Positions 11,213-62,119 of a DNA stretch of 64,000 nt are shown piece after piece. The stretch comes from an uncultured Alphaproteobacteria bacterium (GTDB lineage Bacteria; Pseudomonadota; Alphaproteobacteria; UBA6615): the NCBI GenBank assembly GCA_964276015.1, contig CAXYDO010000014.1, positions 27,199 through 91,198 on the forward strand, given 5' to 3'. Every line of letters starts with the position of its first letter. Positions within the stretch are counted from its first letter, which is position 1. The position numbers were made by a program, and so were the translations under genes. A model generated the notes under the pieces. It made no database searches. It saw only the letters and a program-made list of their open reading frames with translations, and was not told the origin of the DNA.

Positions 11213-11375
11213 AATTTTCCATTCCGGAACCAAATAGAGAGCAGGGTTAGAGGCTAAGATGAGCTCCGGCTCTAGGAACATAGGGCGCCGAATTCGGGCC
11301 CGCATGGTCTGCGCATTGTCAGACCCCGTGTCGCATGCGCAGCCCGGATCTCGCTCGCCAAGGAGGAGGGACGGC

Positions 11376-12055: not shown

Positions 12056-12092
12056 CACGGATGACGCCCAAAATAATTAATTGGTGGGTGGT

Positions 12093-12575: not shown

Positions 12576-12583
12576 GGATTAGG

Positions 12584-13165: not shown

Positions 13166-13443
13166 GGTAGGAACACGGGTTGGTTATTGAAATTATAAGT
13201 GCCGGATCAATGGAACCCGGTCGCGACGCTTGATTTCGCTATTCCGTCTTGCCTCTTGCCCGGCGTTATCCAGGCCCGCCCGATACTGTTTTCGCGGTCA
13301 TGGGTGACCGTGCCGGAGCGGTGTTGTTGTGCGGCGCGGAACTTAGTCAGGGGCCCATAGAGTGTCAATACCGGGAAAGCCTTACCCCCTACATGGATAA
13401 AGGCCTTGGAAGTTCAATCAAATCATTGAAGTGGAGCAAAAAA

Positions 13444-14916: not shown

Positions 14917-14928
14917 GGTTAAGGACTT

Positions 14929-42497: not shown

Positions 42498-42587
42498 GGA
42501 GGGGTGGCCGAGTGGCTGAAGGCGCACGCTTGGAAAGCGTGTATGCGGGTGACCGTATCGAGGGTTCGAATCCCTCTCCCTCCGCCA
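42498..42587 (+). tRNA. tRNA-Ser (anticodon GGA)
   Basis: GGAGGGGTGGCCGAGTGGCTGAAGGCGCACGCTTGGAAAGCGTG-[long variable arm]-GAGGGTTCGAATCCCTCTCCCTCCGCCA. The 7-bp acceptor stem, anticodon loop TTGGAAA, long extra arm, T-loop TTCGAAT and encoded CCA all fit. Confidence 0.9.
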
Positions 42588-42633
42588 ACATTATCATGCA
42601 TTGTGAGATTCATCGCTTCGGCCAACTGGCCAT
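42576..42633. repeat. Left 58-bp direct repeat (attL core) covering the last 12 nt of tRNA-Ser plus 46 nt downstream
   Basis: CTCCCTCCGCCAA[C]ATTATCATGCATTGTGAGATTCATCGC[T]TCGGCCAACTGGCCAT recurs at 49437..49494 with 56/58 identity. Confidence 0.8.
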
Positions 42634-42775
42634 GTAGTTCGAGTTCGAACTGCCCGCGCTGTTGCGCTGGATGGGCTATGATACGGTCGACCAGTCCACG
42701 CAGCGCTGCGGAAGCTTCATCGCGTACCATTGGATCTGCATGAAGGGCTTCTGACAGGTTTGCGATCTTTTGCTT

Positions 42776-43114
42776 TTAGAGGTCGGCCGCATTGGGGTGC
42801 CACTCGATCGTTGTCGGTTCCTCGTCGTTGAACACCACAAGGTCCGAGAGCCTTGCCTCGAGTTTCCGTAATTTCTCGCCGATAGCTCCGAGCTCGTTGA
42901 CGGTACCTTCGGCGATGGCGTCGACGAGACGCGCAATCTGTCGTTCAAGGTTTGCCCTTTCCTTGGCGTGCGTGTTGCGTCGGCGACGTGCGTCCTTTTG
43001 CAGTCTTTGCAGTTCCGCGTGGTACTCGTCCACAAACGTTTGAACGAGTTCGGGCTCCATCAGCTTGTCTTTCAGCCCACCCAGCACACGGTCCTCTATG
43101 TCTTTGGCAGGCAT
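42776..43114 (-). pseudogene. Fragment of a large serine recombinase (coiled-coil region only)
   Basis: FVDEYHAELQRLQKDA...ERQIARLVDAIAEG...WHPNAADL matches the central coiled-coil segment of recombinase-family proteins. The catalytic N-terminus and C-terminus are missing. Confidence 0.4.
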
Positions 43115-43136
43115 GGTTCGGTTGTTGGTGCAGGTG

Positions 43137-43595
43137 CCCTTCTGGCGCGCGGTCGATTACGGAGGCGAGGTGCTCGAAATTTTCGCGACGAAACGCGGGG
43201 ATCGTAGGGCTGCCCTTCAGTTTCTGAAGCGCGCGATGAAGCGGTATGGACATCCGAAAGTGGTTGTCACCGACCGGCTTCGGTCATACCGGGCAGCGAT
43301 GAATGTGATCGGGAATGCCGCCGATCAGGAATACGGCCGCTGGCTGAACAACCGGGCGGAAAACTCACATCAGCCGTTTCGAAGACGGGAAGGGGCGATG
43401 TCGAAATTCAGGGGTGTAAAAACCCTGCAGAAATTCGCCGCCGTTCATGGTTCAACCTTCAACCATTTTAATCTCGACCGCCACCTCAACAGCCGCTCCG
43501 TCTTCAAACAGAACCGCTCCTCCGCGCTGGCCGAGTGGCGTCAACTCCTGGCGCTCGCTAATTCGAGTCTTTTATGGCTTTTAAAAAAAACATGA
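43137..43595 (+). mobile_element. IS6-family (IS26-like) transposase, 5'-truncated remnant (C-terminal ~150 aa)
   Basis: WRAVDYGGEVLEIFATKRGDRRAALQFLKRAMKRYGHPKVVVTDRLRSYRAAMNVIG...GRWLNNRAENSHQPFRRREGAMSKFRGVKTLQKFAAVHGSTFNHFNLDRHL is collinear with IS26 Tnp from about residue 95 onward. Confidence 0.6.
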
Positions 43596-43738
43596 GGTGA
43601 GGGAACAATTTGCTCCCTCACGTCTCAAAACTACGATAAATTTTTATTTGATAGTCGTTCTCAAAACCAAAGATTATCTTTATACGTATAGATCCACATG
43701 TAAATTTGGGTGCTATTTAACAACAAACAGGGAATATC

Positions 43739-44455
43739 ATGGATAAGTTAATTATGCTTAACCCCGCCGATTATGTTGGGGTAAGTTTTTGGATCATTTC
43801 AGCTGCAATGGTCGCCGCTACGTTTTTCTTCTGGGTTGAGCGTGATAGAGCGGTTGGCAAATGGAAAACGTCCCTTACGGTCGCCGCGATGGTAACTGGT
43901 ATTGCGGCCATTCATTATATGTATATGCGCCAAGGTTGGGTCTACACCGGTGAAAGTCCAACGGTCCTTCGGTACGTAGACTGGTTGCTAACTGTCCCGC
44001 TACAGATTGTTGAGTTCTACCTCATCCTGGCTGCAATGACGGCCGTTGCGACCGGATTGTTTTGGCGGCTACTCGTCGCCTCTTTGGTGATGCTGATTGC
44101 TGGTTATCTCGGTGAGGTAAATAGCGCCAATCCAACGGCACTGTGGGGATTCTTCATCGTTGGTATGGCTGGCTGGATTTACATCCTGTACGAAATCTTC
44201 GCAGGCGAAGCGAGCCGCATTAATGCAAGTGAAGGCACTGTCGCTGGCCAGAAGGCTTTCGGGGCACTGCGTTTGATAGTCACCGTCGGGTGGGCTATTT
44301 ACCCGCTCGGCTACATCTACGGATATGTCGGTGGCGGCGATGTCGCTGGGCTTAATCTGATCTACAACTTGGCTGATTTTGTGAACAAAATCGCCTTTGG
44401 AGTAGTGATCTGGGCTGCTGCAACGTCTGATAGCGCCAGCAAACCGGCTTCTTAA
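43739..44455 (+). CDS. proteorhodopsin (light-driven proton pump, DTE motif, predicted blue-tuned)
   Basis: 238 aa with 7 TM helices. RYVDWLLTVPLQIVEF carries the D97/T101/E108 equivalents with Gln at the position-105 equivalent. The Schiff-base Lys is in NLADFVNKIAFG. The protein is collinear with SAR86 GPR/BPR. No signal peptide is present. Confidence 0.9.
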   Translation: MDKLIMLNPADYVGVSFWIISAAMVAATFFFWVERDRAVGKWKTSLTVAAMVTGIAAIHYMYMRQGWVYTGESPTVLRYVDWLLTVPLQIVEFYLILAAMTAVATGLFWRLLVASLVMLIAGYLGEVNSANPTALWGFFIVGMAGWIYILYEIFAGEASRINASEGTVAGQKAFGALRLIVTVGWAIYPLGYIYGYVGGGDVAGLNLIYNLADFVNKIAFGVVIWAAATSDSASKPAS

Positions 44456-44471
44456 TAGTCTGGTAAATGTC

Positions 44472-44512
44472 AAGGTATGTCCGACAGCTGTCGGACATAC
44501 CTTACTTTTTTT
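44472..44512 (+). terminator. rho-independent terminator after the rhodopsin gene
   Basis: Perfect palindrome AAGGTATGTCCGACAG/CTGTCGGACATACCTT (44472..44503) followed by ACTTTTTTT. Confidence 0.7.
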
Positions 44513-44525
44513 AAGGGGGACCGTC

Positions 44526-44930
44526 TTGCACAGGCAATTTGCCAAGAGCTTTCGCGGGGCTACGGAGCAAGCCGTGCCGCGAGTTGGTACAACACAGAGA
44601 TCCGAAGAAGCGTTGGAAGAAGCGATAATAGCGCTCTTGCCCACGAAGAAAAGTTCGCTCTTTAAGGTAGCGCATTCTCATTTTAGCCAATTTGGTAAAT
44701 TACTACGTGGTCGTACCGCATGGGCGGTAAGTGAAGCCGTAACGCTAAGCCCGGCCTGCGCGCAAAATTGGGCCGCGCGGTTACAGGAACAATTGAACAT
44801 CTGCCGCCAAGAATGCGATGTTCTTCCGGTTCAGATTCAATCCGCATTGGCACCATTAGTAAACTATCTCGAGCACGCTACAACGTCCGTTCGAGCACGC
44901 GCGATGGATACTGCGCGTATTTGCGTTTGA
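44526..44930 (+). CDS. hypothetical protein (134 aa) in the slot normally occupied by crtE
   Basis: TTG-start ORF whose TGA overlaps the crtI ATG (TGATG). It shares the island's low GC. No recognisable family. Confidence 0.3.
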   Translation: MHRQFAKSFRGATEQAVPRVGTTQRSEEALEEAIIALLPTKKSSLFKVAHSHFSQFGKLLRGRTAWAVSEAVTLSPACAQNWAARLQEQLNICRQECDVLPVQIQSALAPLVNYLEHATTSVRARAMDTARICV

Positions 44931-46471
44931 TGGAGGCAACCAGAATTTCCGATATTACGCTCGACGCAGAAAACAGCGCGGGACGGGTCATCGTCATTGG
45001 TGGCGGTTTTGGGGGCATGGCTGCAGCTTTGCGTGCACGAGCGATGGGGTTCTCGGTAACTCTTGTTGAGCGGCTCGATCATTTAGGTGGTCGCGCTCAA
45101 GTTTTTGAGCGCGACGGCTTTAAACATGACGCCGGTCCGACTGTTATCACAGCGCCATTTTTGTTTGAAGAATTGTACCAATTATTCGGCGAGAACCTGA
45201 AAGATCACCTCACCTTCACACCACTAGAGCCTTGGTATCGTTACTATTTCCAAGACGGTCGAAGCTTAGACTATAGCGGTGATCAAGACCGAATGGCGGC
45301 CGAAATTAGCAAATTTTGTCCCGCAGACGTGGCCGGTTACGCCGCTCTAGTGGCCGCATCCCGAAAGATTTTTGACGTTGGCTTCACCCAATTAGCCCAT
45401 CGCCCATTCATCAATTTTGGCTCGATGGTTAGACAAATACCGGCGTTGCTTCGTCTCCGCGCAGACCGCTCGGTGAGCGGCCTAGTCGCCAAGCATATCC
45501 GTCACCCTTTATTGCGGCGCGCCTTCTCGATTCAGCCACTTTTGGTTGGTGGCAACCCTTTTACAACAACCTCTATTTATTCTCTAATCCATTACCTTGA
45601 GAGAAAATGGGGGGTGTCTTTTTGCATGGGGGGAACCGGTGCTCTGGTTTCGTCACTTGTGGATTTAATGGCTCGACAAGGTATCGAAATTTTCACTGGC
45701 GTCGACGTTGAGCGCATCGCTATATCAGGGAATAGTGCTAGCGGAGTCATTCTTGCGGATGGCCGCAATTTTCCTGCAGATCACGTCATTTGTAACGCAG
45801 ATCCACCAAACGTCTACCGCACACTATTGTCTGATGGGGGGCGCGTTGCGCGGCGTCGCAAACGCTTGCTTCCCGAGTCGATGACGAAATATTCTATGGG
45901 GCTTTATGTGCTTTTTTTTGGTACCCGTCGGAAATACCCGGAGGTAGCGCATCATACTGTCTGGCTGGGTCAAAGATTTAAGGAATTACTTGCTGACATA
46001 TTTGACCGCGGTCAGTTGTCAGAAGACTTTTCTCTCTACATCCACCGGCCAACTGCGACCGACCCTAGTTTCGCCCCGGAGGGATGTGACAGTTTTTATG
46101 TACTTTGCCCCGTGCCTAATTTGCAGACCGACCTAAATTGGCCGGTAGTCGGTGAAGACCTTCGCAACCGCATCGTTGAAGCTCTTTCGGATACTATATT
46201 ACCCGATTTAAAAAGTCATATCACAAGCGAATTCTGGATGGATCCCAATGATTTTCGAAATGATTACCGCTCTCATCACGGCGCAGGATTCTCAATCGCT
46301 CCAATTTTGCGCCAATCAGCATGGTTCCGTTATCATAACCGCGATCCACATATCGGAAATCTCTACTTCGTTGGAGCCGGCACCCACCCAGGCGCTGGCC
46401 TGCCCGGGGTTGTAAGCTCCGCCAAGGTGGTCGAAACACTGCTCCGCGAAAAATCTATCGCTACCGTCTGA
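44930..46471 (+). CDS. crtI: phytoene desaturase
   Basis: FAD fold RVIVIGGGFGGMAAALR and the CrtI-typical GGNPFTTTSIYSLIHYLE and YFVGAGTHPGAGLPGV motifs. The start was set to the ATG at 44930 (MEATRISD). Confidence 0.9.
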   Translation: MEATRISDITLDAENSAGRVIVIGGGFGGMAAALRARAMGFSVTLVERLDHLGGRAQVFERDGFKHDAGPTVITAPFLFEELYQLFGENLKDHLTFTPLEPWYRYYFQDGRSLDYSGDQDRMAAEISKFCPADVAGYAALVAASRKIFDVGFTQLAHRPFINFGSMVRQIPALLRLRADRSVSGLVAKHIRHPLLRRAFSIQPLLVGGNPFTTTSIYSLIHYLERKWGVSFCMGGTGALVSSLVDLMARQGIEIFTGVDVERIAISGNSASGVILADGRNFPADHVICNADPPNVYRTLLSDGGRVARRRKRLLPESMTKYSMGLYVLFFGTRRKYPEVAHHTVWLGQRFKELLADIFDRGQLSEDFSLYIHRPTATDPSFAPEGCDSFYVLCPVPNLQTDLNWPVVGEDLRNRIVEALSDTILPDLKSHITSEFWMDPNDFRNDYRSHHGAGFSIAPILRQSAWFRYHNRDPHIGNLYFVGAGTHPGAGLPGVVSSAKVVETLLREKSIATV

Positions 46472-46485
46472 GGAGAAATTCGATC

Positions 46486-47421
46486 ATGGGCTGCACCTTC
46501 GGTTCGAAATCAGCTGAAACGGCGGCGAATGAGATTCTCGCAGCGCATGGTAAGTCTTTCTACTGGGCGCGGCGCTTTTTAGGGCCCGTAGCGGCAAGAC
46601 AAGCGACCTTACTCTACGCCTTTTGCCGACGACTTGACGATATCGCGGATGCCGATAGTCCTGGCGGACTAGAACGTTTAAAAGCGATTGATGCGGCCCT
46701 CGCCGTGGGCGTAGCTGACGGCGATGATCACGTCGCCACATTTCTTTCTCTCAGCAGCGAAATCAATCTTCCCGTGAACGCGGCTCGCGATTTAATCGCC
46801 GGGTTAATTTTTGACCAGGGCGAAGTGCTTTTGGCTGATGAAGATGCTCTGATCGTTTACGCGTACCAGGTAGCAGGGACCGTTGGGCTAATGATGTCGC
46901 CAATCCTGGGGCGTCACGACCCCGTAGCCGACGCTTTCGCTATCGACTTGGGGATAGCAATGCAGCTCACTAATATAGCCCGTGATGTCGCCGAAGACGC
47001 TGACTTAGGTCGACGCTATTTACCAGCATCTTGGTGTGGCCCGATCAGCCCGTCAGAGATTCGCCTGGCGAGCGCTTCCCCTCTATCTCCTGGCAGAGAT
47101 GAAGTCGCGGTGGCCGTAGCCAAGGTTCTGGTTCAAGCTGAAACTTTCTACACCTCTGGTCTTGCAGGGTTGGCCTATTTGCCGATCCGCAATGATCTTG
47201 CGATTGGCATTGCGGCAACCGTTTACCAAGCCATTGGCCACCGTTTACGCCGACGCCGCTATGCCTGGTGGAAAAAGCGACAGGTAGTTGGTGTTAGCGG
47301 AAAAATTCTGGCTACTGGGGCAAGCCTGCCGCGGCTCTTTAGCCGCCGTGCGCCAGGCCCTCATGATGAACGGCTTCACCGAGCCTTGAAGGGAATCGCG
47401 AGTGTCGATGCCTTGCACTGA
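46486..47421 (+). CDS. crtB: phytoene synthase
   Basis: Squalene/phytoene synthase motifs: YAFCRRLDDIAD, YQVAGTVGLMM and DLGIAMQLTNIARDV. Confidence 0.85.
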   Translation: MGCTFGSKSAETAANEILAAHGKSFYWARRFLGPVAARQATLLYAFCRRLDDIADADSPGGLERLKAIDAALAVGVADGDDHVATFLSLSSEINLPVNAARDLIAGLIFDQGEVLLADEDALIVYAYQVAGTVGLMMSPILGRHDPVADAFAIDLGIAMQLTNIARDVAEDADLGRRYLPASWCGPISPSEIRLASASPLSPGRDEVAVAVAKVLVQAETFYTSGLAGLAYLPIRNDLAIGIAATVYQAIGHRLRRRRYAWWKKRQVVGVSGKILATGASLPRLFSRRAPGPHDERLHRALKGIASVDALH

Positions 47422-48541
47422 ACAGGCAGCCTATAGAACTGCCGTGATCGGTGGCGGTTGCGCGGGGCTGACACTAGCCCGCCACTTAACCGCTGCTGGA
47501 GTTTCGCCGCTGGCAGTAATTGATCCCGGCGCCAGCCGGCCGGATCATATCTGGGGTTACTGGGATGACGGCGGAGCTAATTTAAGTCTTCCGCGGCCGC
47601 TTTCTTCCGCCTCCTGGCGGCGCTGGGCGGTAATCACGGAACGTCAGAAAGTTGTGTTGAACGGCGATCGCTTCTGCTACAGGGCTCTCTCATCACAGCA
47701 TTATGAAGAGAGTTTGCGCTCGGATATATCGGGCAGTTCGGGAACGTTTGTTAACGCAACTGCCAAGAGTTGCACGCCAACGAAAGACGGTTTTCGACTT
47801 ACCTTGGACAATGATTTTGAACTGTCTGCCGAAGCGGTTTTTGATAGCCGTCCACCAAAACCACCAGTCGGCGCCTTATTACAGCATTTTGGCGGCTGGC
47901 ATGTGCGGATGGAGCGACCAGTTTTTGATACAAAAACTGCGATTTTGATGGATTTTAGAGTTTCCCAGGATGAGGGAATACACTTTATCTACCTGTTACC
48001 CTTTAATGCCGAACATGCCTTGGTTGAATCTACAGTGTTCTCTCCGACGCCCAAGTCGTCGGAGTGGTATGATAGTCAAATCAAAGCCTACTTGTCCGAG
48101 CATTACTCAGGTGTACAAGCCACCATCGAGGGTCGCGAGGCCGGCGTCATCCCGCTTGCGCCGCTAGTTTCTCCGAATTCTTTTGGCACCGCCATTGGGC
48201 TCCGCGCCGCAACGCATAGAGCCTCCAGCGGCTACGCTTTCTCACAAATTCAGATACAGGCGGCAGACTTAGCGTTAGACCTGATAGCGGATCGGCCTGC
48301 GTGTCCACGGCCCGGCTGTGACAGCTTCGAAGCTTGGATGGACAACGTCTTCCTCTCGGTCCTCCGCCGGTCCCCCGACCGCGCCCCGGAAATTTTTCTC
48401 CGCGCGGCGCGTGCCCTTACCGGGGACCAATTCGCTACTTTCATGCGTGGTCAAAGCGGCTGGCCCACTCGCCTCCGGCTAATGTCTGGCCTCCCCCTCG
48501 TATTATTCCTCAGCGCAGCTTTGGACAGAGGGTCGCGATGA
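47402..48541 (+). CDS. crtY: lycopene beta-cyclase
   Basis: N-terminal FAD motif VIGGGCAGLTLA and the CrtY-like FIYLLPF region. It overlaps crtB by 20 nt. Its stop overlaps the blh ATG (ATGA). Confidence 0.8.
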   Translation: MSMPCTEQAAYRTAVIGGGCAGLTLARHLTAAGVSPLAVIDPGASRPDHIWGYWDDGGANLSLPRPLSSASWRRWAVITERQKVVLNGDRFCYRALSSQHYEESLRSDISGSSGTFVNATAKSCTPTKDGFRLTLDNDFELSAEAVFDSRPPKPPVGALLQHFGGWHVRMERPVFDTKTAILMDFRVSQDEGIHFIYLLPFNAEHALVESTVFSPTPKSSEWYDSQIKAYLSEHYSGVQATIEGREAGVIPLAPLVSPNSFGTAIGLRAATHRASSGYAFSQIQIQAADLALDLIADRPACPRPGCDSFEAWMDNVFLSVLRRSPDRAPEIFLRAARALTGDQFATFMRGQSGWPTRLRLMSGLPLVLFLSAALDRGSR

Positions 48542-49342
48542 GCTGGGAGGTATTAATTCCAATGTTGATGGTTTTGTTAGTCGGGTTTCCCCATGGCGCT
48601 GCTGACGGAGTGTTAGCAGTCAATCTAGCACGTCGAGGGACCATCGGGCTCGGCGCATTTTTTGCACTTTACGGAGTAATCACTCTGTCCGCGGCGGCCT
48701 TTTGGTTGTGGCTGCCTGTGCTGAGTTTAATCAGTTTTCTGCTGCTGTCGGTGGTTCATTTTGGGACCCTCGATAGCAGGCACGACCGCCTTGTGGGCCG
48801 GCGCACATTACGTACCCTCGTCCATGGAAGCACCCTTATTTGTATAATTCCGTGGGCGCATGAGAGGGAAGTGACTGAAATCTTCGGGCTTTTAATCAGG
48901 TTCGGAGGTCGTGTGGCTGGTCCAAATCTTGGCTGCCGCCGCTCTGGCATGGGCTATCGGGGTAGTGTGGCTCGGCCTGGCCTTTGGCCCGGCCGGTCAA
49001 CGTGCTGCCGGAGAATTGATTGTAGTAGCAGCCGTTTTAATAATTTTGCCGCCACTCTGGGGGTTCGCTTTATATTTCTGCACCGTTCACTCTTGGCGCC
49101 ATATGAACGCAATTGTGGCCACGCTGGCCCCCTTCGGCCCAGCAGCATTTCGTTTGGTGGCTTTGCTCACACTGGTCAGTTTTCTGCTAGTCATTGCCGG
49201 GGCGCTCGTCTTGCCGGCAGTAGATATCGACAGCGGGGTTATCCGGGCGACCTTTATTTCGCTGGCAGCCTTAACTGTGCCTCATTTTCTCCTGATTGAT
49301 GTTTACCGCGTTTTGTCACGTCTTAGAGCTACTAGTCGATAA
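48538..49342 (+). pseudogene. blh: beta-carotene 15,15'-dioxygenase (Brp/Blh family), split by a +1 frameshift near 48880-48915
   Basis: The N-terminal half (MSWEVLIPMLMVLLVGFPHGAADG...SVVHFGTLD) is in frame 1 from 48538. The C-terminal half (WLVQILAAAALAWAIG...FCTVHSWRHM...LTVPHFLL) is in frame 2 (track ORF 48911..49342). Conserved His motifs are split across the two frames. Confidence 0.55.
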
Positions 49343-49436
49343 GAGCCGTAATGGACCGCCACCATCCCCTCGCCGGGCAGCCGGTTCTGCGACTACGCGA
49401 TTGTCTGATGTATCCACTGGCGTTGCCGACAGCACC

Positions 49437-49494
49437 CTCCCTCCGCCAAGATTATCATGCATTGTGAGATTCATCGCCTCGGCCAACTGGCCAT
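49437..49494. repeat. Right 58-bp direct repeat (attR core)
   Basis: Copy of the tRNA-Ser 3' end plus downstream sequence. See 42576..42633. Confidence 0.8.
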
Positions 49495-49624
49495 TTCGGT
49501 GCCCTGCGGCATGGTCGACGGTCTCCCCGTCGGGCTGATGATCGTCGGCAAACGCTACGAAGAAGCCACCGTTTTGCGGGTTGCAGAGGCGTTCGAACAA
49601 TCGGGCGATTGGCACAGCATGTAA
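49481..49624 (+). pseudogene. 3'-terminal remnant of an amidase-signature gene (~45 codons)
   Basis: The frame reads ...GQLAISVPCGMVDGLPVGLMIVGKRYEEATVLRVAEAFEQSGDWHSM*, a typical amidase C-terminus (compare the intact amidase at 60716..62119). It starts inside the attR repeat. Confidence 0.35.
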
Positions 49625-49669
49625 CGATTTAGGCCTTTTTGAGTGTCGCGTATTACCGTGTGCGAAACT

Positions 49670-51541
49670 TTATTCCGTGAATTGATCTTCCGGTACATCG
49701 TCGAACGAAGCGTAGTTGAGGCCGTATAGGCGCGCGTAGAGCCCGCCTTGGGCGACCAGCGCTGCGTGGGCCCCGGTTTCGACGATGTGGCCGTTCTGCA
49801 GGACGATAATTCGATCGGCGCCGCGTACGGTAGCCAGCCGGTGGGCGATGACGATGCCGGTGCGGCCCTCAAGCAAGCGTTTGAGGGCCGTTTGAATTTG
49901 GCGCTCGGTCTGGCTGTCGATATTAGCTGTCGCTTCGTCGAGTATCAGAATCTTGGCGTCCGCCACCAAGGCGCGAGCAAAACTAAGCAACTGACGCTGG
50001 CCGAGGGACAGGTTGCGGGCCTGCTCTTCGAGAATTGTGTCGTAGCCGTTGGCGAGCAGGGTGATGAAATCATGAGCACCAACCACGCGCGCAGCACGTT
50101 CGACATCCTCTCGGGTCGCCCAGACGGTCCGGTAGCGGATGTTCTCGAATATGGTTCCGGTGAACAGGAAAGGGTCCTGCAAGACCATGGCGATATGCTT
50201 GCCCAGTGATGCCTTGGCGTAGTCGCGCACGTCGTGACCGTCGATCAGCACCGCGCCTTCATTGACCTCGTAAAACCGATGCAGCAGTGACGTAATACTG
50301 GTTTTCCCCGAGCCGGTTGGGCCGACTAGGGCCACAGTTTCGCCCGGCGCCACCACAAAATTTATATTCTGCAACACAGGCTGGTTCTCGACATAACGGA
50401 ACGTGACGTCGCGAAACTCGACCGATCCCTCAATGCTGTCGGGGTCGATGGCGTCGGGACCGTCGTCGATAGCCAGGGGGACGTCGAGAACTTCGAAGAT
50501 TCGTTTGCCTGACGCCATGGCCCGTTGCATCACGGAGTACTGGATGGTGAGCGAGCGGATCGGATCGAAAAACCGTTGCACGTAGAACAGGAAGGCGACC
50601 ATGACGCCGACATCAAGCGTACTATCGAGGACCTGGAGACCTCCGACCATGATCACGATCCCCATCGCGGCACCGGTAAGGGTGTCGACGATCGGCACCA
50701 TTACCTGGGCCATTTGAGCTGACTTCAGGTGAGCGCCGAGATTGTCCTGAACTTTCTCGTCGTAGAGATCGAAATTGACCGCCTCGCGTCGCATGCTCTG
50801 CACGGTCCGCACGGCACGAATCCCTTCGGCCAGGGCGCCATTGGCGCTGGAGTTGGTTTCGCGCGCGCGGCGGAATGCCACCCGCGCGCGTGGCAACCAG
50901 ATCATGCGGACAATGAACAAGGTCGGCACCACCGACAGGGTGAGGATGCCAAGTCCAAAATCCATCGTCAGCATGATGGCAACGATGCCAAACAGCAGTA
51001 CCAGATCGCCGAACGCGGTGATCGAGTTTTCGAGAAACTCCTGCAGTGAGTTCACGTCACCGGTGAGCCGCGACATCATGCGGCCGGTCTCGGTTTTGTC
51101 CATGAACGAAAGCGATACATTCTGCAGATGAGCGTACATGGCCTGGCGAAGATCGAAGATGACATGCTCGCCGGTTATCCCGATCAGACGGTCTTGCAGC
51201 CAGTTGGCGCCATAATTGACCGTAATGACGGCCGCGAACACCAAGACCACCAGAAATAGACCGGCAGCATCGCCATCGTTGGCCAAAATGACATTGTCGA
51301 TGCCGAACCGAATAATCAACGGTATGGCCAATTGGGCCGCGGTGACGACCAGGACGGCGGCGACCGCGAGCCAAACCTGTTTACGGTAGGGCTGCACATA
51401 GGTCATGAACCGGCGTACCACGCCCCCATCAAACAGCGCCCCGAACATCTCTTCGTCGAGACTGCTCTGCGAACCAACATAGGCCCGCGGCGGTCGTTCG
51501 CGCCCTGGCGGGTGCTTGGTGCCCTCAGTTTTCGTGGTCAT
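49670..51541 (-). CDS. ABC transporter ATP-binding/permease protein (type I exporter half-transporter)
   Basis: N-terminal 6-TM domain plus NBD (GPTGSGKTS, LSLGQRQLLSFARAL, ILILDEATA). Confidence 0.8.
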   Translation of the reverse strand: MTTKTEGTKHPPGRERPPRAYVGSQSSLDEEMFGALFDGGVVRRFMTYVQPYRKQVWLAVAAVLVVTAAQLAIPLIIRFGIDNVILANDGDAAGLFLVVLVFAAVITVNYGANWLQDRLIGITGEHVIFDLRQAMYAHLQNVSLSFMDKTETGRMMSRLTGDVNSLQEFLENSITAFGDLVLLFGIVAIMLTMDFGLGILTLSVVPTLFIVRMIWLPRARVAFRRARETNSSANGALAEGIRAVRTVQSMRREAVNFDLYDEKVQDNLGAHLKSAQMAQVMVPIVDTLTGAAMGIVIMVGGLQVLDSTLDVGVMVAFLFYVQRFFDPIRSLTIQYSVMQRAMASGKRIFEVLDVPLAIDDGPDAIDPDSIEGSVEFRDVTFRYVENQPVLQNINFVVAPGETVALVGPTGSGKTSITSLLHRFYEVNEGAVLIDGHDVRDYAKASLGKHIAMVLQDPFLFTGTIFENIRYRTVWATREDVERAARVVGAHDFITLLANGYDTILEEQARNLSLGQRQLLSFARALVADAKILILDEATANIDSQTERQIQTALKRLLEGRTGIVIAHRLATVRGADRIIVLQNGHIVETGAHAALVAQGGLYARLYGLNYASFDDVPEDQFTE

Positions 51542-53427
51542 TGCGCTGCCCCCTGAATGCTGGAGGGGTCGTCATCCAGTTCGTCGTCGAGACGGTTTTG
51601 TAAGGCATGGAGCTCGGCGTAGCGTCCGCCTTGAGCCACGAGGCTCTCATGTGTGCCCCGCTCAATGATTCGTCCGCCTTCGAGAAATATGATCTCGTCG
51701 GCATGGAGTAGGGTTCTCAGGCGGTGGGAAATAAAGATCGTTGCGCAGGATTGCATCGGCGCTTTCAGGAGCTCGCGGATCTGCTGCTCGGTACCAGCGT
51801 CGATCGCCGCAGTTGAATCATCGAGGATCAGCACCGCCGGATCGAGCATGGTGGTGCGGGCGATGGCGATGCGCTGCTTCTGCCCTCCCGACAGGGACAC
51901 GCCGCGTTCGCCGACCAGGGTGCTGTAGCCTCCCGGCAGGCTGCCGATGAACGTATCGATCTGCGCCAAAGAGGCCGCATTGGCGATGGACTCGTCTTCG
52001 GCCCATGGATCGCCATAGGCGATGTTGTTTTCTAGCGACGTCGTAAACAGGAACGGGTCCTGGGGGACCGTCAACACCTGGCGGCGGAGCGATTCCAAGG
52101 TGACATCGCGTACATCCTGACCATCCAGCGTAATGCGACCGTCCGTGCAATCGTAAAAGCGGGTTAGCAGATGGGCGATTGTCGATTTACCGCTGCCCGG
52201 CGGCCCAACAATCCCGAGCGACCGGCCACGGCGGACCTCGAACGAGACTCCATGCAGTGTTGGGAGGGCGTCATCGCCGTCATAGCCGAACGAGACATTT
52301 TCATAACGAACCAGGGAGTCCTTGATCTCCAACGGCTTTGCGCCGGGCCGGTCGGCGATCGTGGGCTCCAGATCGAGGACCGCAAACAGCCGGCGCCCGG
52401 TGGTCGAGGCCCGGGCGAACGAGTTCACCAATAACCCCAGTTGGCGGACTGGCGCTTGCAGGATCGTCATGAAGGTGAGGAATTCGGTTAAGTCGCCCAC
52501 GGTCAGACGCCCTTCGAGCACACGCAATCCGCCAACCCACAGAACAAGACCCATGGCGATGAAATAGGCGAAGGTCATGACCGTGGTCGACGCCACCCTG
52601 GTCTTGATGCGTCGGTCTGCAAGCGCCATCGCAGCGTCTGCCGCCTTCCCATACTTGGCGAGCTCATAGTTTTCGGCACCGAAAGCCCGTACCACCCGGA
52701 TACCTGTGAGGTTCTCATCCATGATCCGGCCGATGATCCCCATGCGCTCCTGCAAGGCCAGCCACAGAGACCGCAGTTTGAGTCGAGCCACGGCCGATTG
52801 CCAGGCGACGAACGGCACGAAGCTAAGACTCATGGCTCCGAGGAGCAGGTCGGCCGAGAGCAGTAGATAAGCGCCGGCACCGATCAGAATACTCAACAGG
52901 ACGAGGCGCACCAGGCCACTACTGACAAACATCCGTACGCCTTCCAGGTCGAGCATGCCGCGGGTGATCAGCTCTCCGGTATGAACCCGGTCGTGGAACG
53001 AAAAACTCAAACTTTGCAGCTTGTTGTAGAAGGCGAGCCGAAGATCGTAGGCCATCATATGGCCGACGGCTTCGCCCATATAATTGTGTATGAGGGTGAA
53101 CAAGCCGCGCATAATTGAGACGCCGAGTAGCAGCGCGGCAGTCTGGAACAATGCGGTGCGGGCTGCCGCTGCTGTGGCGTTCCCGGTGTCGAGTAGGCCC
53201 AGCGCGCCATCAACTGCACTGCCGAGAAGCGGTGGCACCGTGAGTTGGAACAGCGCTGCGATCACGGTTGCACCGACGGCGATGGCAACGCGTCCGCGAT
53301 AGCGTAGGCACAGTCGGATGATGCGCCACAATATCTGCGCGTCGTTACCTAACTGGCGATCGATATCGGAAGGCGAAGTCGTCAAGGGTTCATCCAGTTT
53401 AGAGTTCGGAAGCGACCTTAGTGGCAC
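51538..53427 (-). CDS. ABC transporter ATP-binding/permease protein (type I exporter half-transporter; partner of 49670..51541)
   Basis: TMD plus NBD (GPPGSGKST, LSGGQKQRIAIART, LILDDSTAA). It overlaps the downstream gene by 4 nt, suggesting a heterodimeric pair. Confidence 0.8.
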   Translation of the reverse strand: MPLRSLPNSKLDEPLTTSPSDIDRQLGNDAQILWRIIRLCLRYRGRVAIAVGATVIAALFQLTVPPLLGSAVDGALGLLDTGNATAAAARTALFQTAALLLGVSIMRGLFTLIHNYMGEAVGHMMAYDLRLAFYNKLQSLSFSFHDRVHTGELITRGMLDLEGVRMFVSSGLVRLVLLSILIGAGAYLLLSADLLLGAMSLSFVPFVAWQSAVARLKLRSLWLALQERMGIIGRIMDENLTGIRVVRAFGAENYELAKYGKAADAAMALADRRIKTRVASTTVMTFAYFIAMGLVLWVGGLRVLEGRLTVGDLTEFLTFMTILQAPVRQLGLLVNSFARASTTGRRLFAVLDLEPTIADRPGAKPLEIKDSLVRYENVSFGYDGDDALPTLHGVSFEVRRGRSLGIVGPPGSGKSTIAHLLTRFYDCTDGRITLDGQDVRDVTLESLRRQVLTVPQDPFLFTTSLENNIAYGDPWAEDESIANAASLAQIDTFIGSLPGGYSTLVGERGVSLSGGQKQRIAIARTTMLDPAVLILDDSTAAIDAGTEQQIRELLKAPMQSCATIFISHRLRTLLHADEIIFLEGGRIIERGTHESLVAQGGRYAELHALQNRLDDELDDDPSSIQGAAQ

Positions 53428-53783
53428 GCCACCGGCACCCGAAACGGCTGCTGTTGGAGCTTTGAATTTCGCCGCAGCGCTTAGCCCTATTCGCGATTAT
53501 ACAACTCTCGGGAGATTATGACTAAATCTTACATTGTTTGATATTCTCATCGGCCAACGATTAGTGGACAGTATGAAAACCCCTGTTCCAACCTGACGTG
53601 TCAGCCTCGACCAATGCAGGACCGGCTGCGCGAGAGGGTGCGGCCCTGCCGCAAGTTTTGCCAGAGGAAGAGGCCAATGTTTAAGGGTTCTGGCGCGTGC
53701 GAAGTCACGTTGAGTTCCTCTTCATTGATATGCGGGTGCATTTTTTGTTGGGCCGTGCCGCATTCATCCCGTAGAGGAACAGG

Positions 53784-54401
53784 ATGTCCCGCAAAGATAA
53801 AACATCAGGAACCAATGGACTGATCTGTGATTTCACAGGCGGCGCAGTTGCACACCGTTTTCGTTTTGGCGGGGGGCGCGGTCAGGCTTTGCCCAAGGCT
53901 GTCGGGATGAAGGGTGGGAAAACCCCAGGCGTGGTGGATGCGACGGCCGGTCTCGGCCGGGACGCCTTTTTGCTGGCTTCGCTGGGCGCCGAAGTGACCC
54001 TGATCGAACGGTCCCGCGAAATGCATGGTCTCTTGGCCGAAGGGCTGGAACGGGCCCTCAACGCTGGTGGTGATGTGGCAGAGGTCATCAGCCGCATGAC
54101 CCTGCTTTATGGTGATGCCAAGGATTTGTTGCCGAGCCTTTCGCCGGACGTGGTGCTGGTCGATCCGATGCACCCCGCGCGCAAAAAATCGGCCCTTGTG
54201 AAGAATGAAATGCGCCTGGTCCGCGAGATAGTCGGCACGGATGAGGATTCTGTAGAAGTTATGAAGGTCGCACTGGCCAACGCGCGCAAGCGGGTGGTCT
54301 TAAAGCGGCCCCTGCGGGCCGATCCGATGGAGGGTATCGGTGCTGCATCCCATCAGATCATAGGTAAATCCACGGCCTATGATGTGTTTATGGTGGGTTA
54401 G
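53784..54401 (+). CDS. class I SAM-dependent methyltransferase, RsmJ-like (16S rRNA m2G1516 family), short form
   Basis: DFTGGAVAHRFRFGGGRGQALPKAVG...VVDATAGLGRDAFLLASLG...VLVDPMHPARKKSALVKNEMR is collinear with RsmJ. The N-terminal ~60 aa found in E. coli RsmJ are not present in frame. Confidence 0.55.
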   Translation: MSRKDKTSGTNGLICDFTGGAVAHRFRFGGGRGQALPKAVGMKGGKTPGVVDATAGLGRDAFLLASLGAEVTLIERSREMHGLLAEGLERALNAGGDVAEVISRMTLLYGDAKDLLPSLSPDVVLVDPMHPARKKSALVKNEMRLVREIVGTDEDSVEVMKVALANARKRVVLKRPLRADPMEGIGAASHQIIGKSTAYDVFMVG

Positions 54402-54421
54402 CCCGCGTAAAAGCGCACTTT

Positions 54422-54862
54422 TCAACGCTCGACGCCTTCCCCTTCATGGGATGATATTTTGGCAACGAGCTCTTCCTGCAAGGGGACAGCGTTGCTCGTC
54501 GCCGCATCGACGTTGACCCAAACAACTTCGCCCGCGGTGCGGATGTCGTCAGCACCCTTGGGATGGATTTCAAGCAGAAAGGTCAGCGAGGATCTTCCGA
54601 TCCGTGAGGTTCGCACATGGACCTCAATGTCCTCGTCGAAGAGGATCGAACGCTTAAATTCGACGAGCGCACGAACGGTGTGGAAATCTTCACCGGTGCG
54701 GTTGACCTGCCCCATGTAGTCATAGGGCAGCGCGCGGAAATATTCCGTCACCGCGGTGTCGAAATACGTCAGGTAGTGCGCATTGAAAACGATTTTTTGC
54801 CCGTCCACTTCCGAGTAACGGACGCGGAACGGCCAGGCAAAACTGAAGTCGGACTTTGCCAA
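54422..54862 (-). CDS. acyl-CoA thioesterase (hotdog fold, YbgC/4HBT-like)
   Basis: 146 aa with the N-terminus FRVRYSEVDGQKIVFNAHYLTYF typical of the 4HBT family. Confidence 0.65.
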   Translation of the reverse strand: MAKSDFSFAWPFRVRYSEVDGQKIVFNAHYLTYFDTAVTEYFRALPYDYMGQVNRTGEDFHTVRALVEFKRSILFDEDIEVHVRTSRIGRSSLTFLLEIHPKGADDIRTAGEVVWVNVDAATSNAVPLQEELVAKISSHEGEGVER

Positions 54863-54865
54863 TGC

Positions 54866-55885
54866 TCAGCTCTTCTTGCGCGCGTGGATGACCCGGGTCA
54901 TACCGGGAACGACCTCATCCTCTTTGATACCCTTAAAGCCCGAAGCTGACATCCGGTCTTTCAGCCAGCCCGGGGTTACCGAGCGTGCTTCCGGCGTGAA
55001 GGCCATATGCTGCAACTGCCAGAGCGCGGCCAAATGTGGACCGGACCGGTCATCTTCGACCATAAAGTCGTGCAAAATGAGATGGCCATCGTCGGCGAGG
55101 CATTCAAAAGCGTATTCGATGACCCGTGTAATTTCGTCTTCGGGAATGCCGCTCAGGAGATAAGACATGAGTATGGCCCCTTGCTGCTTGGGCCATTCCG
55201 TCTTTAGGGCGTTCCCGGGAATGAAGCGGATACGGTCCGTCATGCCGGCTTCGCTGACAAACCGCCAACCAATTTCTGAAACATTTGGAAAGTCGATGAT
55301 CGTCGAAACGAGGTCGGGGTTGGCTTCCAATAGCCGGATGCTCATGGCGCCAGTGCCGCCGCCAACATCGAGAAGTTGACGCGCATCGGACAGGTCAACG
55401 ATGCGTGAGAGTGTTCGCCCCGGTCCGAGGGAGCCGGCATGCTGCGCATTACTGTAAATGCTCGCTTGTTCCGGATCTGACATCCAGTGCTGATAAGAAT
55501 CGACAGCCGCGGGGTCGAGCGTGCCGTCGATGACCTCATTCAGCTGGGTCATAAAGGGATACATCTGCTTGTCGATTTGATACCGCAGGTAGTCGCCAAA
55601 CTCGTGTTTCGACTCCCGCGATAGAAACGTGCTTGCGGCGGGCGCGTTTGTATAGGCTTCGTCGTTCAAGTCGATCAGGCCGATGCTGCTGAGGGCGGTA
55701 AGCACGGTCATAATGCGATTCTCAGGGACCCCGGTTTCAGCCGCGATCTCGGCAGCGGTTCCCGGCTTCCGGTCCAATAAGGTGAAGATGTCTATGTGGA
55801 GGCCAGCAAAAAGCGCTTTCGAGGCCATGAAGCCGAATGCGATTTGTGAAACTTCTTCAGCTGTATTGGCTAACTCTACCGACAT
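54866..55885 (-). CDS. class I SAM-dependent O-methyltransferase (family 2, with N-terminal dimerisation domain)
   Basis: SAM motif LLDVGGGTGAMSI and DFPNV... collinear with bacterial OMTs. The start was set to the internal ATG (MSVELANTAEEV) because upstream ORF sequence overlaps the neighbouring pseudogene. Confidence 0.6.
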   Translation of the reverse strand: MSVELANTAEEVSQIAFGFMASKALFAGLHIDIFTLLDRKPGTAAEIAAETGVPENRIMTVLTALSSIGLIDLNDEAYTNAPAASTFLSRESKHEFGDYLRYQIDKQMYPFMTQLNEVIDGTLDPAAVDSYQHWMSDPEQASIYSNAQHAGSLGPGRTLSRIVDLSDARQLLDVGGGTGAMSIRLLEANPDLVSTIIDFPNVSEIGWRFVSEAGMTDRIRFIPGNALKTEWPKQQGAILMSYLLSGIPEDEITRVIEYAFECLADDGHLILHDFMVEDDRSGPHLAALWQLQHMAFTPEARSVTPGWLKDRMSASGFKGIKEDEVVPGMTRVIHARKKS

Positions 55886-55955
55886 CGAAAATAAAACCCC
55901 CTGCGTGATAGGAATGCCCGCTTGGCGACTTGGTGCGGGTTCTAGTGGGGTATAC

Positions 55956-56908
55956 TTATCGGGTTGGACCCCTCCAATCAAATGCACCCAAGCTGTCATT
56001 TCCCGTCGGGGAGTACCACGCGTCGGGGTTTGCCCCGTCGATCCCACTGCCAAGCGTGTCGTTGTGTTTCAAGGCGATCGTAGTCCGGGAACCAGCGGCG
56101 ACGGCCATGACTTCTTTCAATATTGGCATCGGTGCGGTGTCGTAGCCGCGACCCCAGGCAACCAATGTACCGGTGGGGCGGATCGCCAAAGAATGAGATG
56201 AACCGGCCGCAATGGCCTTGGCACCGGACATGATCACGCTCCACCGGATCGCCTTGTCCCCCAAACCATGTATGCCAACCGGGCCGTTGATGTTGCCGCC
56301 GGTGTCCAAAACGTCTCCGTTTTGCAGGAGCATAATGGAGTGTCCGTTATGGGCTGTGATGTGGGCAGCGTTGGAGGCTGTTTGTACAAACCGATCTGTC
56401 GATTTCAGCTGGCCATCACCGTATTGCCCGCGATGAGCGCGGCCTTTGACGAACAGGTCGCCCGAAGATGTGACCTAGTAGTTTGCCCCATCCCCAACGG
56501 CGGCAACCGCGACGTCGGTGGCCACATGTTGCCTGGTTTCGTCCGATAGCCACCAAAGCGCGGAATCATTGGTAATCGCCAGCACGCCGCTGTCGCCAGC
56601 ACGCCGCTGTCGCCAGCCGAAAACCTCACTATACCCGCCATCAATAGGGTTTTCTGGTTCGTATTCCCACTGAAGACCATGAGATCATCGTTGTTTGTTA
56701 GCGCGTAATATTTGTCGCGCCCGACGCCGACCCGACGCGCTGTCACCGGCAGTATCATGGGTGAGTTTTGTCCCTTCCACGCATAAACCTGCCCGGCCAC
56801 AATCGCCATTTGCCGATCATAAAAAGCCGCAAGCTTTGGCGACGAGCTATCAGCCAAAGCCGTGCCGGACGTCAGCAGGATAATTAGAAATACTTGAACA
56901 CTACGCAT
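55956..56908 (-). pseudogene. secreted RCC1-repeat protein gene inactivated by a 17-bp tandem duplication (56581..56614) and an in-frame TAG
   Basis: Signal peptide MRSVQVFLIILLTSGTALA plus RCC1-like repeats (GSSHSLAI, GTLVAWG, GQYGDGQL). The reading frame is only continuous if one 17-bp copy is removed. Even then one TAG remains (approximately 56478..56480). Confidence 0.45.
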
Positions 56909-57045
56909 TCTCACGTCGCCACCTTGTTCGGTTGTGCGCTTGCGCATATAGGCCTGCGATAACAACACCTCGATCCGTGTCGCGTGTGACCCTGACAGGT
57001 GATCTGCTAAGGTTTGGCAAATTTTCGCAGCGTAGAAGGCCCCAT

Positions 57046-60002: not shown

Positions 60003-60704
60003 ATGGTGCGCCGCATCATCGATCTAAGTCTCGACATCGAAGACAACATGCCGTCCCACAAGCTTTTTCAGAGCCCGGTTTATCTGAAAGCCATGACGCA
60101 CGAGAACACCAAGGCTCTCAATCTTGGCACGCCGGATGATCCGATCACGTTTCAGACCAATTTCATCAGCACGCTGGATCATGTGGGAACCCATGTGGAT
60201 GCGCTGCGCCATTTTGATCCAAACGGCGCGTCGATCGACGAGATGCCGATCGATCGGTTTTTCGGCAAGGCGGTGTGTTTCGATATGCAGCATATTCCCG
60301 ACCTCGGGGATATCGACGTTGCTGACATGGAGAAGGCCGAGGCGGAGTCCGGCGTGAAGCTCGATGGTCATATTGTTCTGCTCTGTTCGGGCCTGCACAA
60401 GCGTCATTATCCCGACCGTGAAGTGGTGCTGACCAATCCCGGTATCACGGTGGCTGCGACGCAGTGGATGTACGATCGCGGTTCGCGCCTGCACGGGGTC
60501 GAGGGGCCGTCGACCGACAAGCCGTCTGACAGCTTGTTCGCCCAGCATCGGATCTGTCGTGAGCTCGGTATCAGCCATATGGAATGGTTGGTAAACTTGG
60601 AAGAGCTGCTCGGTTTGGGTGAGTTCGAATTCTTCGGGGTTCCGTTGCGCTTCAAGGGCGGTTCCGGGTCGCCGATCCGCGCCTTTGCTATTGTCGACGA
60701 TTGA
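60003..60704 (+). CDS. cyclase family protein (kynurenine formamidase-like, PF04199)
   Basis: Motifs HVGTHVDALRHF and DxxxxxxxxH typical of putative cyclases. 233 aa. Confidence 0.7.
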   Translation: MVRRIIDLSLDIEDNMPSHKLFQSPVYLKAMTHENTKALNLGTPDDPITFQTNFISTLDHVGTHVDALRHFDPNGASIDEMPIDRFFGKAVCFDMQHIPDLGDIDVADMEKAEAESGVKLDGHIVLLCSGLHKRHYPDREVVLTNPGITVAATQWMYDRGSRLHGVEGPSTDKPSDSLFAQHRICRELGISHMEWLVNLEELLGLGEFEFFGVPLRFKGGSGSPIRAFAIVDD

Positions 60705-60715
60705 TTGGCACGTCG

Positions 60716-62119
60716 ATGGCTCACGATTTTGACTATATGAGCGCCACGGAAATGCGCCTGCGCGTCGCGCGCAAGGACATTTCTCCGGTGGCGTTGACCG
60801 AACGGGCTTTGGCACGTGCAGATGAGGTTGAACCCAGACTCAACGCGTTTTTCGAGCTGTTGCCCGAAGAGGCGATGAAGGCTGCCCGCGCGGCTGAAGA
60901 TGCGGTCATGAAGGGCGACACGCTGGGGGCGCTGCACGGCATTCCGCTTTCGGTGAAGGATCTGATCGCAGTCGGAGGAGCGCCGTTTTCTCTAGGATCC
61001 AAAACCATGGAGGGCAATATCGCCGCGGAAGATGCGCCGGCGGTTGAGCGTGTGCGAACTGCCGGCGGTGTCGTGATCGGTAAAACGACCACAAGCGAGT
61101 TCGGGTGCAAGCCGGTGGGGGATTCGCCCCTGACCGGGATCACCCGAAACCCTTGGGATACGGACAAGACGCCGGGCGGCTCCAGCGCCGGAGCTGCGGC
61201 CTCGGTGGCCGCCGGGGTGACACCGTTTGCGCTTGGCACCGATGGCGGCGGCTCGGTGCGTATTCCCAGTGCCTTTACGGGCTTGGCCGGGATCAAGGGG
61301 AGCTTTGCCCGGGTGCCGGTCTGGCCAACATCGGCGACACCGACGCTGGCGCATGTGGGTCCGTTGGCGCGAAATGTGCGTGACGCGGCGTTGCTGTTCT
61401 CCGCGATTGCTGGTTACGACGCCCGGGATCCGTTCAGCATCGCCAGCGATGTCCCCGATGTGATCGGCGCCTGTGATCAATCCGTCGAAGGTATGCGCGT
61501 GGCGTGGAGCCCGACACTTGGTTACGCTCGTCCCAACGCGGATGTGGTTGCCGTGGTCGAGGCAGCAGTCCGCAAATTCGAGGATGCCGGTGCCATCGTT
61601 GAGCAGGTTGATGATGTGTTCGAAGCCGACCCGGCAGATCTCTGGACGGCGGAATTTTACGCCGGGGTCGGCATCAAGTTGCGTGATTTTCTCGAGAACA
61701 AGCGCGACATGCTCGATCCGGCAGTCGCCGATATTCTTGAACCGGCTCTCGATCAGGAAATGCAGGATTATTACACCAAGGTCTTCACCCGCTACGCGTT
61801 GCGTGACCGGATGACGGCATTGTTCAGCAAATACGACGTGCTGCTCTCGCCGGTCTTGCCGGTGTCCTCGCTCGAGGTTGGGAAGAACATTCCCGACAGT
61901 CATGCAGACCGGAACCTGGTGTCCTGGGTCTATTATACTTACCCGTTCAACCTCACCGGCCAGCCGGCTGGCGCGGTCTGCGCCGGTCTGTCGCCTGACG
62001 GCATGCCGGTCGGGTTGCAGGCCGTCGGTCGCTATCTCGACGAGGCCTCGGTCGTGCGCGCCATGGCCTTTGTCGAGCGGATGCAGCCCACCGGCTACAA
62101 CATTTGTAATTTCGAGTGA
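60716..62119 (+). CDS. amidase (amidase-signature family)
   Basis: AS signature GGSSAGAAASVAAGVTPFALGTDGGGSVRIPSAFTGLAGIKGS with the Ser-cisSer-Lys triad context. The start was set to the ATG at 60716 (MAHDFDY). Confidence 0.8.
   Translation: MAHDFDYMSATEMRLRVARKDISPVALTERALARADEVEPRLNAFFELLPEEAMKAARAAEDAVMKGDTLGALHGIPLSVKDLIAVGGAPFSLGSKTMEGNIAAEDAPAVERVRTAGGVVIGKTTTSEFGCKPVGDSPLTGITRNPWDTDKTPGGSSAGAAASVAAGVTPFALGTDGGGSVRIPSAFTGLAGIKGSFARVPVWPTSATPTLAHVGPLARNVRDAALLFSAIAGYDARDPFSIASDVPDVIGACDQSVEGMRVAWSPTLGYARPNADVVAVVEAAVRKFEDAGAIVEQVDDVFEADPADLWTAEFYAGVGIKLRDFLENKRDMLDPAVADILEPALDQEMQDYYTKVFTRYALRDRMTALFSKYDVLLSPVLPVSSLEVGKNIPDSHADRNLVSWVYYTYPFNLTGQPAGAVCAGLSPDGMPVGLQAVGRYLDEASVVRAMAFVERMQPTGYNICNFE

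Follow-up and report, generated by a model that had tools for sequence, protein, structure and literature searches.

The window analyzed here is a stretch of 64,000 nucleotides (nt) of contig CAXYDO010000014.1 (positions 27,199 to 91,198 of the forward strand; GenBank assembly GCA_964276015.1), from an uncultured alphaproteobacterium of the GTDB lineage UBA6615. Between positions 43739 and 49342 it carries five genes on one strand, encoding a rhodopsin, CrtI, CrtB, CrtY, and Blh, a neighborhood typical of the Brp/Blh family. Our subject is the last of these genes, blh, which is predicted to encode the dioxygenase that cleaves beta-carotene to retinal, the chromophore of the rhodopsin. As deposited, this gene is a Brp/Blh dioxygenase gene interrupted by one base, and we consider below where that base is likely to have come from.

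A blh gene divided by one surplus base

The start codon of blh (ATG, 48538) overlaps the stop codon of crtY as ATGA. From this start, frame 1 reads MSWEV and continues through FPHGAADG, VVHFGTLD, and EIFGLLI, remaining in frame through codon 120. Beyond that codon the frame 1 product runs into a nonsense tail rich in Arg, Gly, and Cys, which ends at 49299. The remainder of the protein is found in frame 2, which is closed upstream by a TAA at 48893 to 48895, is open from 48896 to a stop codon at 49340 to 49342, and reads (S)GSEVVWLVQIL, VHSWRHM, and TVPHFLL in that order. Codon 119 is TTA (48892 to 48894) and codon 120 is ATC (48895 to 48897); these are followed by A48898, and the homologous reading restarts with GGT at 48899. 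The gene as deposited can thus be listed in four parts.

48538 to 48897, plus strand: 5' segment of blh in frame 1, codons 1 to 120, with FPHGAADG (H19) and VVHFGT (H74); matches Pfam BCD and TIGR03753.
48896 to 48897, plus strand: lesion, with T48896 and C48897 adjacent; relatives have a single base at this site, T (ATA, Ile120) or C (ACA, Thr120).
48898 to 49299, plus strand: out-of-frame tail of the frame 1 product, residues 121 to 253 of the deposited protein P0002, with no family match.
48899 to 49342, plus strand: 3' segment of blh in frame 2, codons 121 to 267 and the stop codon, with HSWRH (H184 and H188) and TVPHFLL (H249).

In an alignment with the DNA that encodes P0001, an intact relative, the identity was 98% and the only gap was the surplus base in the window (TTAAT[C]AGGTTCG), which places the lesion at 48896/48897. 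The junction reads TTAATCAGG and contains no homopolymer. An earlier, sequence-only reading of this DNA had recognized a Brp/Blh gene split by a +1 shift with no homopolymer at the junction, and the reading frames, the profile matches, and the DNA alignment all bear this out. The same reading had the frame lost after about 48915, approximately 18 nt downstream of the actual junction in codon 120; it correctly assigned the C-terminal half to the +1 frame but began it at a GTG at 48911, whereas the homologous reading begins at 48899.

Matches to family profiles divide at the same point. The N-terminal piece covers positions 2 to 115 of the Pfam profile BCD (PF15461; E value, 1e-21) and 1 to 120 of TIGR03753 (blh_monoox), and the C-terminal piece covers positions 135 to 265 (E value, 2e-17) and 130 to 259, respectively; the Pfam match of the frame 1 product stops at residue 121. 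Each half alone clears the Pfam cut-off, while their scores of 84.4 and 69.8 bits are below the cut-off of TIGR03753 (95.25). Removal of one base restores a gene of 804 nt, and the repaired protein of 267/268 amino acids (aa) scores 138.5 bits against Pfam (cut-off, 28) and 152.7 bits against TIGR03753. No second lesion was found in blh after that removal.

Five histidines of Blh (H19, H74, H184, H188, and H249) are invariant in an alignment of 25 sequences. The split divides them two and three, with H19 and H74 in the N-terminal piece and H184, H188, and H249 in the C-terminal piece. Given a real break, neither piece could serve as the enzyme by itself, because the invariant histidines are distributed between the two. 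The conditional claim of the earlier reading, that a real frameshift would leave this copy unable to provide retinal, is therefore sound.

Intact relatives and a polymorphism at codon 120

We compared the window with 15 blh-bearing contigs from independent metagenomes and metagenome-assembled genomes (MAGs), drawn from JGI, ENA, NCBI, Logan single-run assemblies, the marine metagenome MEHZ01, and the MAG GCA_905181725.1 (“Alphaproteobacteria bacterium UBA830,” FRAM18_bin083). All 15 have an open blh of 267 aa, at 96.7 to 99% nucleotide identity to the window, and against each of them the only gap across blh is the surplus base. The single uninterrupted frame of about 260 to 310 aa that characterizes the Brp/Blh family is thus present in every relative and missing from the deposited window copy. 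According to the earlier reading, resequencing that yielded one open frame of about 270 aa would refute a real frameshift; in effect such a frame is present in the 15 relatives, which are independent assemblies from this population, although none of them represents the source sample itself.

Protein searches gave a similar result. The intact 267-aa protein P0001 aligns with the entire query (100%) at 95% identity, and the 90%-identity cluster of intact Blh has 30 members; apart from truncated entries, the members listed all have 267 aa. The deposited frame 1 product (P0002, 253 aa) occurs on one contig (151,445 bp; NCBI and ENA) and forms a cluster of one, and the 143-aa product of the C-terminal open reading frame (ORF) was not found in a collection of about 15 billion proteins. 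A scan of metagenome contigs for the exact pattern of either junction allele returned no match, in a collection that holds few contigs of this population. A protein-guided scan of metagenome contigs returned three loci, all of which either were free of the insertion or did not span the site. A scan of genome contigs returned only the intact species representative, from a collection that does not include the window's own genome.

The surplus base falls on a site that is polymorphic among the relatives. Six contigs carry TTAATAGG (ATA, Ile120), corresponding to seven fetched loci (L001 to L006, with L010 from the same contig as L002). Eight contigs carry TTAACAGG (ACA, Thr120), corresponding to nine loci (L007 to L009 and L016 to L020, with L011 from the same contig as L007). 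The group with the C allele includes both the closest relative of the window (L016) and the most divergent clade (L017 to L020). The window sequence, TTAATCAGG, is the T allele and the C allele in tandem. There are 42 to 53 other single-nucleotide polymorphism (SNP) sites among the relatives in the 804 nt of blh, and a random single-base insertion would bring the second allele of a SNP to lie next to the one already there with a probability of approximately 0.03. Apart from this site the gene appears undamaged: the repaired Blh differs from P0062, the Blh of L016, at two residues (90 and 120) and keeps all invariant residues of the family.

The window also shows a patchwork of haplotypes around blh. 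It is identical to L016 over 1.35 kb (49127 to 50472), but the 2 kb upstream (from 47065) contains 34 differences. Across 47065 to 50472 the alleles of the window follow now one and now the other of two haplotype groups, switching over short distances. This switching could reflect natural recombination, which L003 shows too, or a consensus of mixed strains.

Two histories suggested by the local sequence were rejected. The first, in which ATA passed through ATCA to ACA with the window as the intermediate, conflicts with the depth of the T/C split (C is present in the clade at 96.7% identity), and it would require a broken blh to have been held for a long time; such a gene should have decayed further, and no decay is seen. 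The second invokes a 9-nt repeat, TTTAATCAG, also present at about 48725, as the template of the insertion. We give it no weight, since a stretch of 800 nt should contain about one repeat of this kind by chance.

Origin of the surplus base

To judge from the comparisons of sequence above, the surplus base is probably an artefact of consensus building or polishing in a mixture of strains, with blh intact in the cells. We favor an artefact over a real loss because the relatives are all intact, the base lies on a common T/C SNP and comprises both of its alleles, and there is no other damage. Replication slippage does not explain the insertion, since the site is not in a homopolymer.

In the mechanism that we envisage, two co-occurring strains, one with ATA (Ile120) and one with ACA (Thr120), would have had their reads collapsed into one contig. 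The T/C mismatch would have been written as “T-” in one set of reads and as “-C” in the other, and a consensus that retained both bases would read ATCA, gaining one base and shifting the frame. The cassette would then be a normal, working proteorhodopsin photosystem of rhodopsin, crtI, crtB, crtY, and blh. This mechanism presumes that the source assembly included a consensus step (long reads or polishing) applied to mixed strains. Short-read assemblies of this microdiverse island yield fragments of 1 to 8 kb, and the source contig of the window is 151 kb long, which would fit a long-read assembly that collapses strains.

Errors of a comparable kind were found in related contigs. In L026 (contig_13200, 560 kb; at about 8049), the essential gene pheT is split by a 1-nt deletion whose position is exactly that of a C/T SNP in another contig, and in L029 (contig_14298; 12563 to 15167) a stretch of 2.7 kb contains ten private homopolymer insertions. 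Both of these error-bearing contigs have Flye-style names, whereas contigs of MEGAHIT style have no private indels over the same 12.4-kb stretch. As a separate observation, L023 and L026 have in common a G insertion (at about 16649) that truncates ilvD.

Several points weigh against an artefact. A k-mer containing ATCA could not arise de novo in a short-read assembler of the pure de Bruijn type, and if that method had been used the base would be real. Our case draws on a comparison of assemblies rather than on the source reads. No other conserved gene in the window is split (thrS, pheS, pheT, lepA, rpoN, and two ABC exporters, among others, are long and uninterrupted), and the assembly is therefore not generally prone to error. 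Finally, real decay is present nearby, in the form of an RCC1-like pseudogene, an amidase remnant, and a truncated transposase.

If the insertion is real, it would be a very recent, strain-specific null allele of blh, and the strain would make beta-carotene (with geranylgeranyl diphosphate [GGPP] from elsewhere) and the opsin apoprotein and have no retinal of its own, pumping protons only with retinal obtained from neighbors or from an enzyme encoded outside the window. We regard this, the main alternative, as possible but on balance unlikely. The base does stand in the deposited sequence, and its 253-aa product is on record; the window is otherwise clean, which implies that errors in it are rare; and blh lies in an accessory island amid decayed genes, where a 17-nt duplication that is found only in the window is hard to blame on sequencing. 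Genomes with rhodopsin and no blh also occur naturally, for example in tribes A7 and C1 of the acI Actinobacteria (PMC5301498). Set against these points are the coincidence with the T/C SNP, at the low chance estimated above for a random insertion, and the confinement of the allele to this one assembly, with P0002 on a single contig and no trace of the 143-aa product among the roughly 15 billion proteins. Moreover, rhodopsin, crtI, crtB, crtY, and blh show no further decay, which would make a real event very recent, and an insertion outside a homopolymer is an uncommon spontaneous mutation. The more specific proposal, in which ATCA marks a natural blh-null strain that retains its opsin and carotenoid pathway and relies on retinal released by conspecific siblings, the chromophore being a public good of the “Black Queen” kind, seems doubtful to us. 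Even if real, the insertion would be a single recent null allele in a population that makes retinal, and thus a modest case of dependence on neighbors for a chromophore, with a genotype for which other lineages with rhodopsin provide precedents.

A real insertion in a gene that still works, either through a +1 ribosomal shift at AUC-AGG on a “hungry” AGG codon or through two halves made separately and assembling in the membrane, is highly improbable. AGG is rare in the host genes (1.4 per 1,000 codons; 10 of 494 Arg codons) and directly follows the last correct codon, but it occurs in frame twice elsewhere in blh, the tRNA on AUC in the P site would find no pairing with UCA after a +1 shift, the frame 2 TAA at 48893 to 48895 stands in the way of the nearby CUU-U slip, and there is neither a stop codon in the A site, nor an upstream Shine-Dalgarno-like stimulator, nor an A/T run for transcriptional slippage. 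No shift is needed in any of the 15 close relatives or in any of 46 other family matches. A GGAGG at 48904 to 48908, just ahead of the GTG (48911) with which the C-terminal ORF begins, could suggest separate translation of the halves; it belongs to the normal coding sequence (G-S-E-V), recurs in all intact relatives, and is too close to the GTG, being 2 nt away. The 133-aa nonsense tail of the frame 1 product and the two-plus-three division of the invariant histidines also speak against function. Programmed +1 frameshifting, transcriptional slippage, and internal re-initiation were rejected on these grounds.

We return, then, to a consensus of mixed strains as the probable source of the base. 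The sequence-only reading held that, given a real frameshift, the cassette makes beta-carotene and no retinal; a loss of retinal synthesis is probably not what happened, given the intact relatives, the position of the surplus base on a T/C polymorphism, and a gene and cassette that are otherwise undamaged. If an artefact is indeed the cause, the case is mainly a matter of annotation, and the absence of retinal synthesis should not be recorded for this MAG. Frameshifts that fall on known SNPs in strain-collapsed contigs should be treated as errors until the reads say otherwise.

The rhodopsin-carotenoid cassette

Upstream of blh, the cassette consists of four open genes, which are free of gaps relative to the relatives.

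43739 to 44455, plus strand: proteorhodopsin-type rhodopsin, intact (PF01036; E value, 2e-46); 100% nucleotide identity to L015.
44768 to 46471, plus strand: crtI (phytoene desaturase), open; matches to Amino_oxidase and NAD_binding_8 from residue 73.
46486 to 47421, plus strand: crtB (phytoene synthase), intact (PF00494; E value, 2e-51).
47402 to 48541, plus strand: crtY (lycopene cyclase), intact (PF05834; E value, 3e-47); no gaps relative to the relatives.

In the rhodopsin translation, the proton acceptor is Asp, the T101 position is Thr, and the proton donor is Glu, and the lysine of helix G (DFVNKIAFG) is present. Gln at the spectral tuning position identifies it, by prediction, as a blue-absorbing type. 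The true start of crtI is probably about 200 nt inside the ORF.

The earlier reading had raised the possibility of retinal from a second blh or from another carotenoid cleavage oxygenase, and within the 64-kb window we found neither. Searches with 48 family members (tblastn) detected no second blh in the window, all other matches having E values above 0.01, and no RPE65-type oxygenase or polyprenyl synthase was found among the approximately 50 window ORFs scanned. Neither crtE (GGPP synthase) nor idi is present in the island that carries the cassette, and neither was found among the same ORFs.

The island at tRNA-Ser

The cassette lies within an island of 6.86 kb that has a low GC content (0.53, versus 0.59 to 0.60 in the flanks); GC at third codon positions (GC3) is 0.49 to 0.56 in the island versus 0.64 to 0.80 in host genes. 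Its features, in addition to the cassette, are as follows.

42498 to 42587, plus strand: tRNA-Ser(GGA), the left anchor; the island begins at its 3' end.
42576 to 42633, plus strand: left copy of a 58-nt direct repeat, comprising the last 12 nt of the tRNA and 46 nt beyond it.
42776 to 43114, minus strand: 112-aa coiled-coil ORF with no significant Pfam match.
43065 to 43595, plus strand: truncated DDE transposase ORF of the IS6/IS240 family, just upstream of rhodopsin (PF13610; profile positions 20 to 134 of 139).
49437 to 49494, plus strand: right copy of the 58-nt repeat, 97% identical, located 95 nt past the blh stop codon and running into the amidase remnant.

The border formed by a tRNA, the repeats that include the tRNA 3' end, the atypical composition, and the presence or absence of the segment in relatives are all features of tRNA-linked islands. 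No intact integrase was found in the island, where the only candidates are the 112-aa coiled-coil ORF and the truncated IS6/IS240 transposase. In a sister species (about 80% nucleotide identity), synteny with the window extends to the end of tRNA-Ser and resumes at 55983, with the RCC1-like gene. Between these syntenic parts the sister species has only ydjM and no cassette, while the window has 13.4 kb (42590 to 55982; compared in L022 to L029) that comprises the island, the amidase remnant, two ABC exporters, SAM_MT, a thioesterase, and an O-methyltransferase. In L028 this tRNA site is occupied by IS240 transposases that are 92% identical to the window at 43143 to 43543. The tRNA-Ser site looks like an integration hotspot.

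Homology between the strain groups ends directly past the blh stop codon (from 49343), and three right flanks were distinguished by comparing L002, L017 to L020, and L007/L016. One carries DUF6476, a pseudouridine synthase, and a sigma-70-family factor; another carries ydjM and a cupin; and the third carries the amidase remnant and the ABC exporters. Because the flanks are of three different kinds, the cassette occupies different contexts within one species-level population.

Decayed genes and other features of the window

Two decayed genes lie downstream of the cassette.

49457 to 49624: C-terminal remnant of an amidase, a 55-aa ORF (PF01425; profile positions 413 to 445).
About 55998 to 56914, minus strand: RCC1/WD40_RLD-like pseudogene, with an in-frame stop (GANY*VTSSG) that is common to the independent contig L007.

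A longer amidase remnant of 148 aa is kept in L007; about 390 nt of it are missing from the window and L016, in which the right 58-nt repeat takes their place. An intact amidase of 472 aa is encoded elsewhere in the window (60701 to 62119). In the RCC1-like pseudogene, a 17-nt tandem duplication (56576 to 56592), present in the window only, shifts the frame; the corresponding gene of the sister species is intact, at 300 aa. Far from the cassette, the segment from 10801 to 13482 contains ORFs at 10801 to 11250, 11480 to 12058 (minus strand), and 12146 to 13198, with a comparatively low GC3 of 0.53 to 0.58 and no Pfam match. This segment is possibly another stretch of foreign origin.

Comparison with known systems

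The characterized Brp/Blh beta-carotene 15,15'-dioxygenase of the uncultured marine bacterium 66A03 (Q4PNI0) belongs to the same family by profile. Its candidate iron ligands have been proposed to be His-21, His-78, His-188, His-192, and His-256 (bioRxiv 10.64898/2026.08.06.743266). Judging by order and motifs rather than by a direct alignment to Q4PNI0, H19, H74, H184, H188, and H249 of the window protein appear to correspond to these residues. The window copy differs from Q4PNI0 in being interrupted as deposited, and its cleavage of beta-carotene to retinal is a prediction from sequence. A search of the literature for blh together with proteorhodopsin and a frameshift found no paper.

Two further comparisons concern the lesion itself. 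Among the hallmarks of +1 shifts of the prfB and Ty1 type, the window offers the slow A-site codon (AGG) and lacks both conservation and re-pairing in the P site. The consensus error in L026, which is of long-read style, resembles the lesion in that a 1-nt indel falls exactly at a C/T SNP; L026 drops a base there, whereas the window keeps both alleles.

The nearest systems are the intact blh genes of the same population, represented by P0062 on Logan contig L016, P0053 on MEHZ011425867.1, and P0050 in GCA_905181725.1. They have the crtB-crtY-blh order and the ATGA overlap in common with the window, and they differ from it in being single 804-nt frames with T or C at codon 120, where the window has both. 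If the frameshift were real, the window would resemble acI tribes A7 and C1, which combine an opsin and genes of the crtEBIY type with no working cleavage enzyme (PMC5301498). In those tribes blh is absent from the whole clade, whereas the window has a blh that is perfect apart from this lesion, and all sibling strains have an intact one.

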